In this document: piece after piece, positions 1 to 7,943 of the stretch
Position numbering within the stretch: the first letter of the stretch is position 1
Layout: each line of letters begins with the position of its first letter
Virus record (IMG/VR): IMGVR_UViG_3300010259_000016
Coordinates: 1-11,855 of that record
Length of the DNA stretch: 11,855 nt
Source: a virus
Taxonomy: Duplodnaviria; Heunggongvirae; Uroviricota; Caudoviricetes
Strand: one strand, 5' to 3'
Program-made: the position numbers and the translations under genes
The notes under the pieces: model-generated
What the model was told of the DNA's origin: nothing
The model's input: only the letters and a program-made list of their open reading frames with translations
Databases searched by the model: none

Positions 1-118
1 ACTTAGTGCCACTGATTTTGTCCTCAAAAATCCGCTCACATCCCGCGCAGTTCAGTGCATTACGTTGCAAATCGGTGTTCTGGTCATTTGTTGACACGCG
101 TACATAGCCAATAAGCAT
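1..118 (-). CDS. Serine DNA invertase (Gin/Pin/Cin/Hin family), N-terminal 39 codons only; gene continues beyond the left edge
   Basis: Reverse complement of 1..118 translates from the ATG at 118..116 as MLIGYVRVSTNDQNTDLQRNALNCAGCERIFEDKISGTK. This is the conserved N-terminus of small serine invertases, including the YVRVSTNDQ motif with the catalytic serine at position 9. Too short and edge-truncated to appear in the ORF track. Confidence 0.9.
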   Translation of the reverse strand, partial: MLIGYVRVSTNDQNTDLQRNALNCAGCERIFEDKISGTK

Positions 119-173
119 GATCAATCCCCTGAATAAAAACCGGGGATGATGCCAGTTAGTCGTAATCGCTGCA

Positions 174-199
174 TTTTCTTAAACGTTGGTTTGGGAGAA
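174..199. other. Invertase crossover site 1 (gix/hix-like, 26 bp)
   Basis: TTTTCTTAAACG-TT-GGTTTGGGAGAA: two 12-bp half-sites around a central TT dinucleotide, fitting the remembered gix/hix half-site pattern TTnTCnnAAACC. The inner half-site (188..199) is the exact reverse complement of 2107..2118. Lies 56 bp upstream of the invertase start. Confidence 0.8.
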
Positions 200-646
200 G
201 GTTCAGCATTACCCGTTGGCGTGCCTGTTCCGTGGCCTTCCGCCACTCCGCCAACAGGCTGGCTGAAATGCAACGGTGCGGCTTTTTCTGCTGAAGAATA
301 CCCGGAACTGGCAAAGGCTTACCCGACAAATAAATTGCCTGATTTACGTGGTGAGTTCATTCGTGGCTGGGATGACGGAAGAGGAATAGATACTAACCGT
401 AGCTTGCTTTCGTCACAGGGAGATGCCATTCGAAATATAATTGGTGCATTAGTGGATGTCAGGTTTAATACCTACCCTTCTGATTCTGGCGTTTTTACAA
501 CCAGCGTCATCGGAGATGCTTCATCTGATTCAATTAAAGGTGGTTATGCAAAGCGAGTAACATTCGATGCTTCCAGAGTTGTTCCAACTGCAAACGAAAA
601 CCGACCTCGTAACATTGCCTTTAATTATATCGTGAGGGCTGCCTGA
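187..646 (+). CDS. Alternative tail-fibre variable C-terminal segment, silent in this orientation; has no start of its own and would be fused to the constant fibre region after inversion
   Basis: ORF 146..646 contains GLGEGSALPVGVPVPWPSATPPTGWLKCNGAAFSAEEYPELAKAYP, a tail-fibre C-terminal receptor-binding motif. The frame is continuous with the constant part of the fibre gene across the crossover site. The first 14 residues of the track ORF (MMPVSRNRCIFLNV) are outside the segment and probably not translated. Confidence 0.8.
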
Positions 647-1248
647 TGAATAAAGCCGTATTAAATAACGAACTCATTGCCATAAAAGCGGGAGACATTA
701 CCATTTATAATTATGATGGTGAAACGCGGGAATATATTTCCACATCAACTGAATATCTTGCGGTTGGCGTCGGTATCCCGGCATGTTCTTGTTTAGATGC
801 ACCAGTTACACATAAAGCTGGTTATGCAATCTGCCGTTCTGCAGATTTTAACTCATGGGAATATGTGCCAGACCATCGCGGTGAAATCATCTATAGCACT
901 GAAACAGGAGAATCGAAAGAAATCACAGCTCCGGGTGATTACCCTGAAAATACAACCACTATCGCCCCGTTAACGCCATATGATAAATGGGATGGTGAGA
1001 AATGGGTGACGGATACTGAGGCACAGCATAGTGCCGCAGTAGACGCAGCAGAAGCACAGCGCCAGTCACTGATTGATGCAGCAATGGCTTCCATTAGTCT
1101 GATTCAGCTGAAATTACAGGCCGGACGGAAACTGACGCAGGCAGAAACAACCCGACTTAACGCCGTGCTGGATTACATTGACGCGGTGACGGCAACAGAT
1201 ACCAGCACAGCGCCGGACGTCATCTGGCCTGAACTGCCGGAGGCGTAG
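646..1248 (+). CDS. Tail-fibre assembly protein (Tfa chaperone) paired with the alternative fibre end
   Basis: 200 aa. Start overlaps the stop of the preceding fibre segment (TGATG). C-terminus DYIDAVTATDTSTAPDVIWPELPEA is a Tfa-type tail. Sits directly downstream of a fibre C-terminal module. Confidence 0.85.
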   Translation: MNKAVLNNELIAIKAGDITIYNYDGETREYISTSTEYLAVGVGIPACSCLDAPVTHKAGYAICRSADFNSWEYVPDHRGEIIYSTETGESKEITAPGDYPENTTTIAPLTPYDKWDGEKWVTDTEAQHSAAVDAAEAQRQSLIDAAMASISLIQLKLQAGRKLTQAETTRLNAVLDYIDAVTATDTSTAPDVIWPELPEA

Positions 1249-1663
1249 GCCATTCAATATCTGGAGCACTGGAGGGATCAACCAGTTCCAGTGCGTCCAG
1301 ATAATCCAGCCATAAATTATATTGCTCCAGCTCGTTACCTTTCAGACGACCAATAGCAGCTTTGCCAGGCCACTGATGGGTATTGATGTAAGTATTGGCT
1401 TCTGAAACCAAAGATATTTTTTTCATTTCAGCCATCAACACCTCATCCTCTTTTGAAGGCGGTGGGGAATTAATCCATATTGGCCGTCCTGAACTGTCAG
1501 CGCCAATTTCTTTCCCTTCTGGATGCAGCCCAAGAAATTGCTCATATGTTTCTCGGGTAATTTCAATAACATCATCTGGAAGCGTTCCCGCATCCTCATA
1601 TTCTGGAAACAATTCTTGTAGATAAAAACTTTTACTTCCGGGTGAAAAGAATACTGAGTTCAT
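1220..1663 (-). CDS. Tail-fibre assembly protein (Tfa chaperone) paired with the currently expressed fibre end
   Basis: 147 aa. ATG lies 2 nt after the fibre stop codon. C-terminus DYLDALELVDPSSAPDIEWPTPPAVQAR is a Tfa-type tail. Its 3' end overlaps the opposite-strand tfa by 29 bp. Confidence 0.85.
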   Translation of the reverse strand: MNSVFFSPGSKSFYLQELFPEYEDAGTLPDDVIEITRETYEQFLGLHPEGKEIGADSSGRPIWINSPPPSKEDEVLMAEMKKISLVSEANTYINTHQWPGKAAIGRLKGNELEQYNLWLDYLDALELVDPSSAPDIEWPTPPAVQAR

Positions 1664-1665
1664 TA

Positions 1666-3168
1666 TTACCGTCCAATGATTAACGCTGAGACGCTGGTAT
1701 CTGAAGGAAAGGCTGCATTCAGTGGTTTGTCGACTTTGAATACAATCGTATTATTCCCCCGGACAGCGGCAAAAGAACAAACCGCCGTCGCGTATGAACC
1801 TGTAATATTACTGGATACACCACCATAGGCTGTTGTTGATACCAGAGGGATAACGCCCAGCACCTTATTAGGAAATACAAAGGGCAATGTGGCTGTGGCA
1901 ATATAAGACTTATTAGAACCTGTAATGGCATAAGCATTATCAGTCATTCCATTCATCGCCACTGGACCGCTTATACTTACAGTAACCATCTGAGTGATTA
2001 GCCCGTCAGGTTGACGAATCACAAAATTTCCATTGCCACCAGTAACCGTCCAGAAAGACATATCAGGGATTTGGTTTTCCCCGTTGCCCACATTCCGTTT
2101 TGCCGCTTCTCCCAAACCAAGGTATGCGAGAAGACCAGCTACATCCTTTCCACTCAAATTGGTAAGCGTATTGTCCAGCGGTTGTTTACCTGCCAGCGCA
2201 TTAAGCATTGTCGTGGCAAAGTTCGGATCATTCCCCAGTGCCGCCGCCAGTTCGTTCAGTGTATCCAGTGCCGCAGGTGCAGAACCCACCATTGCTGCAA
2301 TCGCTGATTTCACAAAAGCTGTAGTGGCAATCTGTGTATTGTTGACCGACTGTGCCGCAGTAGGTGCTGTTGGCGTTCCGGTGAGTGCCGGACTCGACAG
2401 CGGTGCTTTTAGTGCCAGCGTATTGTTAATGGTGGTACTGAATTTCGGGTCATTGTTAATGGCTGCGGCAATTTCTTTCAGTGTGTCCAGCGTGGCTGGC
2501 GCACCGTTAATCAGAGCAGTAATAGCGGCCTGAACAAACTCAGTGGTCGCAATCCGCGTGGTGTTATTTCCTGCTGCAGGCGTCGGCGCTTTTGGTTCTC
2601 CGGTAAATGTCGGATTATGTTTCTGCGCATACTGGGTATGAGGATCTTGTGCGGCAATGTGGTTTCTCATCTGGTCATCCACATACAGCTTTAATTCCAG
2701 GACTTCATCATCCACATATTTACGGGTTGCCAGCACTACAGCAGGGTCGATTTTCAGGGTGATTTTGTCCGTACTGCTGGTAATCAGCACCATGCGCACG
2801 GTCTGGGTGCGCCCGCTGCCTTCAGCCAGTTGCGGCTTATAGCTTTCCGGGCAGTTGCCCACGGCAATCAATGCCCCGGACTCATCAAACAGGCCCACTT
2901 CACGTATCCACCAACCGCCCTCGTTTTCAGGGATCACCTGTTCAGCAATAATCTGGCTGCTGTTCTGCGGGTCGATATAAAGCATATTCAGCGCAGCCCG
3001 GCGTTTCTCATTTACCAGTGCCGTCTGCTTTGCGTCCGGCGTTGGCAATACTCCGCCGCCATCGCCCACCGCCATATGGGTAATTTTTAGCGGCACACCG
3101 AGCGCGGCGGCGCTGGCAAGTTTCGCCGCGCCAATATCCGTCAGCAGGGTATAAAATTTTGTGCTCAT
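1666..3168 (-). CDS. H: Tail fibre protein (P2 gpH-like): constant N-terminal part 2120..3168, currently fused to the variable C-terminal part 1666..2119
   Basis: 500 aa. N-terminus MSTKFYTLLTDIGAAKLASAAALGVPLKITHMAVGDGGG...ESYKPQLAEGSGRTQTVRMV matches the P2 gpH N-terminal anchor as I remember it. Internal tandem repeats are present. The crossover site falls in codons 350..354 (LGLGE). Confidence 0.9.
   Translation of the reverse strand: MSTKFYTLLTDIGAAKLASAAALGVPLKITHMAVGDGGGVLPTPDAKQTALVNEKRRAALNMLYIDPQNSSQIIAEQVIPENEGGWWIREVGLFDESGALIAVGNCPESYKPQLAEGSGRTQTVRMVLITSSTDKITLKIDPAVVLATRKYVDDEVLELKLYVDDQMRNHIAAQDPHTQYAQKHNPTFTGEPKAPTPAAGNNTTRIATTEFVQAAITALINGAPATLDTLKEIAAAINNDPKFSTTINNTLALKAPLSSPALTGTPTAPTAAQSVNNTQIATTAFVKSAIAAMVGSAPAALDTLNELAAALGNDPNFATTMLNALAGKQPLDNTLTNLSGKDVAGLLAYLGLGEAAKRNVGNGENQIPDMSFWTVTGGNGNFVIRQPDGLITQMVTVSISGPVAMNGMTDNAYAITGSNKSYIATATLPFVFPNKVLGVIPLVSTTAYGGVSSNITGSYATAVCSFAAVRGNNTIVFKVDKPLNAAFPSDTSVSALIIGR
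2107..2132. other. Invertase crossover site 2 (gix/hix-like, 26 bp), inside the tail-fibre coding sequence
   Basis: TTCTCCCAAACC-AA-GGTATGCGAGAA. The inner half-site and central dinucleotide are the exact reverse complement of site 1 (188..199 plus TT at 186..187). Confidence 0.8.
2179..2583 (-). repeat. Internal tandem duplication within the tail-fibre gene (two copies of about 60-70 codons)
   Basis: Protein repeats TTRIATTEFVQAAITALINGAPATLDTLKEIAAAINNDPKFSTTINNTLALKAP and NTQIATTAFVKSAIAAMVGSAPAALDTLNELAAALGNDPNFATTMLNALAGKQP. The corresponding DNA is visibly similar (for example gtggcaatctgtgtattgttgac versus ggtcgcaatccgcgtggtgttatt). Confidence 0.7.
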
Positions 3169-3770
3169 GGATTCACTCTCATTGTGTCAATAACATGGAC
3201 CGCCCCGCCTTCATGCGCGGTGCCACCGGAAATAATCGTTTCGTTGATATACGGATAGATCGTGATTTCTTCGCCAAGATAGCTGGCGGCTCCCACCCAA
3301 TGCGGGCCGCTGGTCTGCAGATTGATGGACATGCCGATCATGTGGCGGCTACATGGTTTGGCATCGCTTATCAGTCGCTCAAGTTCCAGATAGGTATCTT
3401 CAGTGATGCCCTGGTCCTGCACGCCGATATCCAGGCGAAACGTGCCCGGTGCCTCTCCGGTCTGCCACCACTCAATAATGCGGATCAGAAAGCCGAACGG
3501 CTCCACCACCCGCCGCACGGCACTGGTGGTCCCTTTATGCTGATGAATATAAAAAGCATCCTTCACCACCTGGCGCTTGACGCTTTCTGTCCAGCCCTCG
3601 TCCCAGCGATCCACAGAGAACGCCCAGGCGAGATAAGGCAGGAAACTGACCGGACAGGTTGCCGGATTCCACAAGTCACGAAGCGGCACCTGCAGATCAG
3701 AAATCCCGCTGCAGGTTTGCGCCAGTCGGCGCTCCAGTGGTGTTGAACCCGGTGGCAGCAGACTATTCAT
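3165..3770 (-). CDS. I: Baseplate/tail protein I (P2 gpI-like)
   Basis: 201 aa. Position between the baseplate J gene and the tail fibre gene, overlapping the fibre start by 4 nt (ATGA). Sequence MNSLLPPGSTPLERRLAQT...FLPYLAWAFSVDRWDEGW is typical of P2 gpI-family proteins. Confidence 0.8.
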   Translation of the reverse strand: MNSLLPPGSTPLERRLAQTCSGISDLQVPLRDLWNPATCPVSFLPYLAWAFSVDRWDEGWTESVKRQVVKDAFYIHQHKGTTSAVRRVVEPFGFLIRIIEWWQTGEAPGTFRLDIGVQDQGITEDTYLELERLISDAKPCSRHMIGMSINLQTSGPHWVGAASYLGEEITIYPYINETIISGGTAHEGGAVHVIDTMRVNP

Positions 3771-6107: not shown

Positions 6108-6552
6108 GTTTCACCGTCCACATTTCTTCAGGTTCATCGGGTTCTGCTACAGCTTCAACGCTCGACACACTGCCGTCAGTGCTGACCAGCACACGTTCCG
6201 TCAGTTGCAGGTTAAGGCTGATATCACAGACATCGTTGCGCAAAATATCCACATCAAAGGTGAATAGCTTTTCCCGTAACGCCGGGTTATTGATGGCATC
6301 GGGCTGGTTATCCCGAAGCCACAGTAAAACCGGGGCCATCAGCAGATTCTGGTCGCCGCTGAAATCCTCTATCACCACGTTCAGGGTATAGCGGTACTCC
6401 CATGACATGGAGCTGGCCCCCGTGGCAACCAGCGAACCGTTATCCACAAACAGATGCAGTTTGTCCGGGTTATTGCGGACATAAGGCACCGCTTTATTGA
6501 GGGCGTGGCGAAGGGATTGTGGTTTGTTCACTGTTTCGCTCCTGACACGCAA
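6100..6552 (-). CDS. R: Tail completion protein R (P2 gpR-like)
   Basis: 150 aa. Motif LFVDNGSLVATGASSMSWEYRYTLNVVIEDFSGD...LLWLRDNQPD matches gpR-family proteins. Overlaps the S start by 8 nt. Confidence 0.8.
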   Translation of the reverse strand: MRVRSETVNKPQSLRHALNKAVPYVRNNPDKLHLFVDNGSLVATGASSMSWEYRYTLNVVIEDFSGDQNLLMAPVLLWLRDNQPDAINNPALREKLFTFDVDILRNDVCDISLNLQLTERVLVSTDGSVSSVEAVAEPDEPEEMWTVKRG

Positions 6553-6784
6553 TAATCATGTCCACTTTGTCTGCACAGACCGCCCAGGCGGCCTCCGTTT
6601 CATCCAGCAACGCGTTCAGGTCACCGTTAGTGCGCGGCGCTGCCTGCCCCAGCCGACACGGCGTCACTCGCGGACAACCACTGACGGTAAGCTGCACCTC
6701 CGGTGAGTGTGGGGCGTTCCCGCAGCCGGATAATGTCAGCAGGCAAAGGAGTATCAGCCCAGCGGCGTAAATCCTCGTTCTCAC
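6494..6784 (-). CDS. lysC: Outer-membrane spanin lipoprotein (LysC / Rz1-like), nested in another frame within lysB and running into R
   Basis: 96 aa. MRTRIYAAGLILLCLLTLSGCGN... has a signal peptide followed by an LSGC lipobox. Proline-rich. Embedded out of frame in the i-spanin gene as in P2 lysB/lysC. Confidence 0.7.
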   Translation of the reverse strand: MRTRIYAAGLILLCLLTLSGCGNAPHSPEVQLTVSGCPRVTPCRLGQAAPRTNGDLNALLDETEAAWAVCADKVDMIIACQERNSEQTTIPSPRPQ

Positions 6785-7055
6785 GTTTCAGTTCCTCAAT
6801 CCGGTGTTGTCGTTGTCTCAGTAGTGCGCTGGTCTGTTCTGCGTCGGCATAGAGTAGCGCCTGCTCCCGGTTGTTGGTTTCTGTCAGAATGGACAGGCTG
6901 ATAAGCTGGCTGTTGCTCTTTGCCAGTGCCTGGCTTTTGCTCCGAAGCTCGTCTGCCTGCGTGCTGATGGTCTGGCTGGCATCAGCCAGCCGCCACGTCT
7001 GCCAGCCCAGCGCCGCCAGTAATAACGCCAGCACAACCAGCAGCAACCGGTTCAT
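6627..7055 (-). CDS. lysB: Inner-membrane spanin (LysB / Rz-like)
   Basis: 142 aa. N-terminal transmembrane helix MNRLLLVVLALLLAALGW followed by a charged, coiled-coil-like periplasmic region (ELRSKSQALAKSNSQL...RQRQHRIEELKRENEDLRRW). Confidence 0.75.
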   Translation of the reverse strand: MNRLLLVVLALLLAALGWQTWRLADASQTISTQADELRSKSQALAKSNSQLISLSILTETNNREQALLYADAEQTSALLRQRQHRIEELKRENEDLRRWADTPLPADIIRLRERPTLTGGAAYRQWLSASDAVSAGAGSAAH

Positions 7056-7430: not shown

Positions 7431-7943
7431 TCAGTTTGCTCCCTGTAAACACCAGGCCATCTCCCGCGCACGGCGGTTATCCAGCCCCTGATTAAACACA
7501 CCTTTTACATAAACCCAGCGCGGCAACTGTCGGCACGCATCCGCCCAGCGCCGCTGATTGAGTAATTTCACCAGCGTGGAACTGCAGGCATTGCCCGTAC
7601 CCACGTTGAAGGCAAACGACACCGCAGCGTCATACACCTTCTGCGGCGGCTGTTGCTTCACACACCTTTCCAGCGCCCGCTCCACACGCAGCACGTTGGA
7701 GATCAGCCCTTCCGCTGCCTGTCGTTCCGTAATGGTTTTGCCTGGAATGACGCCAGATGTATTACCAATGCCGTCGGTCCAGACACCCGCGCTGCACTGA
7801 TACGGCTGCAGACGACAGCCTTCGTAATCGGCAATCAGTTTCAGTCCCTCCACGGAGGTGTGAAGCTGCTGAAAACCCGGCAGCGTGGCAGCAATAGCCA
7901 GCACGGCCCCGACAAGGCAGCGTTTAACGATTGATGGATTCAT
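7431..7943 (-). CDS. SAR endolysin (lysozyme, P1 Lyz / phage 21 R-like)
   Basis: 170 aa. N-terminal Gly/Ala-rich weakly hydrophobic helix KRCLVGAVLAIAATLPGF (signal-arrest-release type), then EGCRLQPYQCSAGVWTDGIGNTSGV, which closely resembles the P1 Lyz catalytic region as I remember it. Confidence 0.85.
   Translation of the reverse strand: MNPSIVKRCLVGAVLAIAATLPGFQQLHTSVEGLKLIADYEGCRLQPYQCSAGVWTDGIGNTSGVIPGKTITERQAAEGLISNVLRVERALERCVKQQPPQKVYDAAVSFAFNVGTGNACSSTLVKLLNQRRWADACRQLPRWVYVKGVFNQGLDNRRAREMAWCLQGAN

Follow-up and report, generated by a model that had tools for sequence, protein, structure and literature searches.

An antisense overlap of 29 bp joins the convergent tail fibre assembly genes of a predicted invertible cassette in a P2-like prophage

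The window (the whole 11,855-nt stretch of viral DNA analyzed here, IMG/VR record IMGVR_UViG_3300010259_000016) opens with the 5' end of a gene for a serine DNA invertase of the Pin/Gin/Hin type (1..118, minus strand; Pfam Resolvase, PF00239, E 2.3e-9), which is cut by the window edge and has 39 codons inside it (translation MLIGYVRVS...); in relatives, full-length genes annotated as "recombinase family protein" or "DNA invertase" are found at the matching position. The strongest inverted repeat in positions 1-3300 (I1; 81% complementary, with 15 contiguous identical nucleotides, TTGGTTTGGGAGAAG) is formed by 174..200, with a central TT at 186-187, and 2106..2132, with a central AA at 2119-2120. 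These are the predicted left and right crossover sites, and they appear to resemble hix/gix-type sites, with 12-bp half-sites around a central AA/TT. The left site is located at the start of a promoterless plus-strand ORF (146..646; Pfam Collar, PF07484, E 1.2e-15), a silent alternative C-terminal segment of the tail fibre of which the part from about 188 would be used after inversion. The right site is located inside the tail fibre gene itself (1666..3168, minus strand; P2 H-like, 500 aa; Phage_tail_fib, PF12571, E 1.1e-64), which consists of a constant part (approximately 2121-3168) and the currently joined variable part (1666-2120). Each fibre tip is followed by its own tail fibre assembly (tfa) gene, and the two units are convergent: 146..646 leads into 646..1248 on the plus strand, and 1666..2120 into 1220..1663 on the minus strand. 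Inversion in silico, with cuts at 186/187 and 2119/2120, yields an in-frame fibre of 502 aa (...LAYLGLGE joined to GSALPVGV... and ending in VRAA) that is followed directly by the plus-strand tfa gene. With the constant fibre part as the reference, relatives carry the tfa junction in either orientation (19 versus 7), and the flipped state is annotated in 'Escherichia phage P2' from O157:H43 T22. Beyond the cassette, the window continues as a P2-type late region that encodes homologues of I, J, W, V, S and R as well as of lysozyme, small terminase, major capsid protein and scaffold. As read from the sequence, the locus is a Pin/Gin-type invertible tail fibre host-range switch in a P2-like prophage, and the placement of the convergent tfa pair, with its antisense overlap, inside an invertible segment is borne out.

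Two further features of gene arrangement were observed in the window. Same-strand start/stop overlaps (643-646 and 3165-3168; ATGA-type 4-nt and 1-nt overlaps) connect tfa with the fibre tip and the fibre gene with gene I, an arrangement for translational coupling that is usual in P2-type late operons. At 6494-7055 on the minus strand, downstream of the lysozyme gene (7431..7943), an ORF of 142 aa with an N-terminal hydrophobic segment (6627..7055) overlaps, out of frame, an ORF of 96 aa with a lipoprotein-like signal ...LTLSGC (6494..6784), a pair that resembles the Rz/Rz1 (P2 lysB/lysC) spanin arrangement.

The plus-strand tfa gene (646..1248, 200 aa, TfaE-type) is in the silent orientation here, and the minus-strand gene (1220..1663, 147 aa, TfaP-type) is in the expressed orientation, directly 3' of the fibre gene. 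Both proteins are intact and exceed the gathering threshold of the Pfam Caudo_TAP family (PF02413; cutoff 22.1 bits), with scores of 112.8 bits (E 1.7e-32) and 95.5 bits (E 3.6e-27), respectively; the TfaE-type protein is 93% identical to homologues from E. coli and Kluyvera, and the TfaP-type protein has 100% matches in IMG/VR contigs. The two genes share 1220..1248, that is, 29 bp read on both strands, as is evident from the ORF listing and from codon-by-codon translation. The TfaE-type protein ends in ...TSTAPDVIWPELPEA before TAG at 1246-1248 (codon by codon, ...APDVIWPELPEA-TAG), and the TfaP-type protein ends in ...SSAPDIEWPTPPAVQAR before TGA at 1222-1220 (...APDIEWPTPPAVQAR-TGA). Thus, the overlap, the stop codons and the tails quoted in the preliminary description are all reproduced. 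Alignment of the two C-termini shows that the proteins are homologous over their last 80 residues (BLASTP, 33% identity, E 3e-10), so that the similarity of the tails reflects paralogy and not chance. The Pfam match of the TfaP-type protein stops at residue 142, leaving a tail of 5 residues, AVQAR, beyond the domain.

At the junction, the motif shared by the two proteins, APDxxWPxxP, is encoded on adjacent stretches of DNA, APDVIWPELP of the plus gene at 1210-1239 and APDIEWPTPP of the minus gene at 1267-1238, with only 2 nt (1238-1239) in common. The last proline codons (CCG) of the two WPxxP motifs interdigitate at CCGG (1237-1240). Past its motif, the plus gene continues with E-A-stop, the antisense of the P-T-P of its partner, and the minus gene with A-V-Q-A-R-stop, the antisense of I-W-P-E-L. 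Around this point, a 28-nt dyad element of the form TGGCCT-n6-CCGG-n6-AGGCCA (1225..1252, TGGCCT-GAACTG-CCGG-AGGCGT-AGGCCA; centre 1238/1239) spans both tryptophan codons, and the arms of this partial palindrome are the Trp-Pro codons of the two genes. In the phase of the overlap, the first codon positions of the two genes face each other and second positions face third positions, and therefore no site is free in both genes. The statement that similar tails are read from the same DNA accordingly stands with respect to the antisense overlap but not to the motifs, which lie side by side as an imperfect inverted repeat. The overlap had also been taken for the symmetry centre of the invertible segment; this does not hold, given that the dyad centre is 85 bp off the midpoint of the segment (approximately 1153). 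Neither the length nor the content is the same in the two halves of the segment.

The same 29-bp overlap is already annotated in E. coli LR-25 (1146..1748 and 1720..2163 of locus L001), in the plasmid-prophage p13P477T-2, in phage pro483, and in the e14 P segment of K-12 MG1655, where tfaP (1208132..1208545, plus strand) and tfaE (1208517..1209119, minus strand) overlap in a sequence identical to 1220-1248 of the window. A search with a 151-nt query centred on the junction, with matches required to cover at least 80% of the query, finds this core in 2,065 of 5,426 complete E. coli genomes, in up to 7 places per genome, and in 41 phage records. The overlap is thus the ordinary, already known and annotated middle junction of a common cassette, and has little discovery value as such: as part of the normal make-up of a very widespread prophage element, it is present in more than a third of complete E. 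coli genomes and annotated in K-12.

In the same 5,426 genomes, the best full-length match of the cassette (1-3300) is approximately 94% identical, and the 151-nt junction alone has a 100% match in E. coli EC9952; with the TfaP-type protein also matched at 100%, the cassette is a mosaic. A separate observation concerns the lambdoid siphovirus HK97 (NC_002167.1; locus L372), which, like HK106, matches the 151-nt junction core over 141 nt (1501-1641 of the HK97 locus). The HK97 tfa gene ends at position 1589 of the locus, and about 50 nt past its stop show homology with the 3' end of the TfaP-type gene on the opposite strand; no gene is annotated in that stretch and no invertase nearby. This stretch looks like a fossil of an invertible cassette that would have been the source of the stf-tfa unit.

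Relatives were surveyed in 371 loci collected by protein similarity, in one scan of a genome collection and four scans of viral contigs, seeded with the minus-strand tfa of the window, a Citrobacter tfa, Mu U and a Pantoea tfa; Tfa ORFs were identified with an HMM built from the first matches, all convergent pairs were listed and identical pairs were removed. In this sample, whose loci were seeded with the window's own Tfa or a few relatives and are therefore not independent and biased toward Enterobacteriaceae, the non-redundant pairs comprise 117 with a 29-bp overlap, 2 with a 20-bp overlap, 57 with a spacer of 26-31 bp (49 of them at 28 bp), 5 with a spacer of 107-295 bp and 1 degenerate pair. 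The distance from tryptophan codon to tryptophan codon is exactly 28 nt in all 160 of 160 overlap-type pairs versus 67-73 nt in the short-spacer class. With its 29-bp overlap, its 28-nt span and the tails WPELPEA and WPTPPAVQAR, which are common to the 117 pairs, the junction of the window belongs to the overlap type; the spacer of 26-31 bp with a GC-rich hairpin that defines the Mu type is absent. In these 117 pairs, the N-terminal domains joined to one and the same junction fall into at least 10 clusters on the TfaP side and at least 2 major clusters on the TfaE side. The only mildly new result of the survey is that convergent tfa junctions split cleanly into two discrete types, of which the overlap type keeps a fixed 28-nt frame. 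Retention of the overlap in related segments is hence evident from the 117 non-redundant loci and from curated annotation. That the overlap is an artefact of a sequencing error or a miscalled stop was rejected: the stops and the 29-bp geometry recur in these 117 loci, from independent genomes and viromes, RefSeq annotation, K-12 included, contradicts such an error, and a divergent locus (L106) retains the geometry despite other nucleotides and another stop codon.

The rarer 20-bp overlap (L046, 3260-3287, from Citrobacter sp. Awk 4, and L142) is almost perfectly symmetric in the same 28-nt frame, with both genes stopping at a TAG that abuts the AGGCCA (Trp-Pro codons) of the partner. The 29-bp type has CAG in place of this TAG in the minus gene (1231-1229), and three more codons are read. 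Unpaired and spacer-class Tfa proteins mostly end 3-5 residues past the Trp-Pro pair (mode 4, found in 66 of 120 distinct unpaired ORFs), versus 8 residues in the TfaP-type protein here; by this comparison, the long tail would be a derived state. The degenerate pair, from Shigella flexneri SFBU0723 (L032, 4262-4639), has tfa ORFs of 84 and 85 aa in the centre of the cassette with an apparent overlap of 135 bp, and is presumably a decayed prophage remnant.

Nucleotide diversity was calculated as the mean pairwise value per site in an alignment of 70 unique junction sequences of the 29-bp type, which are related and not independent. In this alignment, diversity in the overlap (1220-1248) is 0.015 over all sites and 0.022 or 0.016 at third positions in the plus and minus frame, respectively; the corresponding values are 0.089 and 0.163 where only the plus gene is encoded (980-1219) and 0.091 and 0.178 where only the minus gene is (1249-1369). 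The third-position excess thus vanishes inside the overlap, and this combination, with the low diversity, is consistent with dual coding. Dual coding as the sole cause of the conservation was rejected: the low-diversity block reaches approximately 1264, about 15 nt past the overlap, and of the 362 windows obtained by sliding 29 nt along the core, 17 equal or exceed the overlap in conservation, the least diverse of them starting at 1235, still within the overlap. Only two polymorphisms are common in the overlap, each silent in one gene and changing the tail of the other: 1236 G/A is synonymous for Leu in the plus gene and replaces Ala with Val in the minus gene, and 1244 C/A replaces Ala with Glu in the plus gene and is synonymous for Thr in the minus gene. 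The burden of constraint therefore falls on the short, poorly conserved tails and not on both motifs. The earlier claim that both C-termini are constrained at once is to this extent only partly upheld: the dual-coding signature is present, but it bears mostly on non-conserved tails.

The overlap lies within a conserved core of the cassette (980..1370), the halves of both tfa genes that encode the C-terminal domains, in which diversity is 0.02-0.14 per 30-nt bin as opposed to 0.2-0.4 outside. The Tfa proteins are modular: the 5' parts of the genes have a diversity of 0.2-0.4 and the 3' parts one of 0.02-0.14, and many N-terminal clusters share a single C-terminal core. Identity across the junction stays at 94-97% in relatives whose constant fibre part matches at only 67-82%. 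For Tfa, the part of PMC9608196 that cites North et al. 2019 describes an N-terminal domain that is variable and binds the fibre, and a helical C-terminal domain that is conserved, and the combination of many N-terminal clusters with one junction agrees with the modular picture given there.

With regard to transcription, the overlap type lacks a terminator, whereas in the Mu type a bidirectional terminator hairpin occupies the spacer, which is about 28 bp long. The spacers of Mu, Pantoea, Mixta and Edwardsiella contain a GC-rich hairpin flanked by A and T runs, with fold z-scores from -3.5 to -6 in Mu, Pantoea and Edwardsiella. At the window junction (1205-1272), the predicted fold is no better than that of shuffled sequences on either strand (z -1.1 and -1.65), and there is no T run. 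A scan for consensus terminators finds none that spans the junction and one weak minus-strand match at 1216-1202, in a region where terminator-like matches are loose (9 found versus 3.9 expected). A hairpin or terminator at the junction was rejected on these grounds. Promoter-like matches in the segment are at chance level (6 found versus 5.2 +/- 2.2 expected), and give no support for internal promoters driving the silent tfa. Between the left crossover site and the start codon of the invertase gene (118), the minus strand has a terminator-like hairpin followed by TTTATT (138-157), a weak match to the consensus with 6 pairs, 3 of them GC; a genuine terminator at this place would restrict the passage of late-operon transcription into the invertase gene. 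For K-12, a published list of convergent pairs whose transcripts overlap in 50% or more of 58 RNA-seq data sets includes tfaP-tfaE (PMC12288877), and therefore both strands can be transcribed across the homologous junction.

Taken together, the 29-bp overlap is probably the inherited tail-to-tail junction of the alternative tfa genes in a Pin/Gin-type cassette of a P2-like prophage. According to this model, the serine invertase would recombine 174-200 with 2106-2132, as the inversion in silico suggests, and thereby exchange the fibre tip and cognate tfa that follow the late promoter and the constant fibre part, and only the tfa gene downstream of the fibre gene would be expressed from the late promoter at any time. 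With only one of the two genes in that position at any moment, a regulatory role would not be required of the overlap. In this cassette lineage, the two genes have no spacer between them: the motifs abut, the last proline codons interdigitate at the CCGG dyad, and each gene reads 2 (plus) or 5 (minus) codons and a stop through the antisense of the partner's motif. The visible effects of the overlap are that the two genes share a constraint on sequence and that the bidirectional terminator of the Mu type is missing. The overlap type most likely arose once, from an ancestor with spacer and terminator, by the loss of about 42 nt, corresponding to two residues and the stop on each side plus the hairpin; a deletion stimulated by the hairpin is suspected. 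Judging from the distribution of the two types, loss of the terminator is the most likely direction, as opposed to gain. The overlap junction would subsequently have spread by recombination via the conserved core across many fibre and chaperone specificities.

Under the main alternative explanation, which we regard as unlikely, the junction is an antisense device of the excludon kind: in the absence of a terminator, late transcription would run antisense through the silent tfa and fibre tip and silence the wrong chaperone, and read-through into the co-oriented invertase gene may in addition couple switching to late expression. The lack of a terminator-like structure, which sets this junction apart from Mu-type cassettes, is compatible with such a device, as are the location of the invertase gene on the strand of the late operon, the very strong conservation of the junction, and the inclusion of tfaP-tfaE in the MG1655 'excludome' of overlapping convergent transcripts (PMC12288877). 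However, the promoter signal in the segment does not exceed chance, leaving the silent copy without an evident promoter to repress; Mu-type switches work with a terminator at this place, so that read-through is not required; and the weak terminator-like hairpin at 157-138 of the minus strand is situated just before the invertase start. Somewhat more doubtful still is the proposition that the loss of the terminator was itself functional, such that antisense late transcription would enforce the use of one chaperone, tie the frequency of inversion to late expression and keep the 28-nt dyad.

The overlap could also be maintained because the overlapping residues are functionally needed in both proteins, and it is in the overlap that diversity is lowest and the third-position excess is missing; moreover, WPxxP is kept across the whole family. 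This explanation nevertheless appears improbable, even relative to the preceding ones, given that the motifs overlap each other by just 2 nt and that each of them lies opposite the post-motif tail of the partner. These tails vary by junction type (EA, EV, AQ and AE versus AVQAR, VTQAS and EV), that of the minus gene falls outside the Pfam domain, the common polymorphisms alter tail residues (A to V, A to E), and members of the family normally end 3-5 residues past WP.

Whatever its origin, the overlap implies that the 3' ends of tfaE- and tfaP-type genes are not independently editable, since the 29 shared bases cannot be changed in one gene without changing the DNA of the other. With its approximately 390 bp, the conserved core lends itself naturally as a homology handle for the exchange of fibre and chaperone modules, and the two junction types, overlap without terminator and spacer with terminator, offer a natural contrast on termination inside invertible cassettes.

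Among known systems, the e14 P segment (stfP-tfaP / tfaE-stfE, with pinE), the inversion of which has been documented by experiment (PMC12529663), shares with the window the architecture, the identical 29-bp junction and a TfaE gene of 603 nt. However, the e14 element is defective, its stfE is a truncated pseudogene and its pinE points away from the segment, whereas the window contains a P2-type late region and an intact gene for a fibre of 500 aa; the N-terminal domain of the TfaP-type protein also differs (147 aa in the window versus 137 aa in e14). The P2-like phages pro483 and T22 'Escherichia phage P2' (Peduoviridae) have the same gene order, namely I, fibre, tfa, reversed tfa, reversed fibre tip, invertase and sheath, with the 29-bp overlap annotated as in the window. 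Their constant fibre parts are approximately 82% identical to that of the window, but the fibre tips and the N-terminal domains of Tfa are different. The G segment of Mu (S-U / U'-S', with gin) is likewise a serine-invertase switch with a crossover site within the fibre gene and two central convergent genes for Caudo_TAP chaperones, with C-termini of the form W/F-P-x-x-P-E. In contrast to the window, U and U' do not overlap but are separated by a 28-bp spacer with a GC-rich hairpin and A/T runs (z -3.5 and -4.1), and the Trp-to-Trp span is 70 nt as compared to 28 nt; Mu-U-like pairs on contigs of 95-103 kb have the same 28-bp spacer as Mu. Finally, the tfa pair is similar to excludons in that the genes are arranged tail to tail and their transcripts necessarily overlap if both are made, but the tfa genes are alternative copies switched at the DNA level and not independently regulated neighbours.
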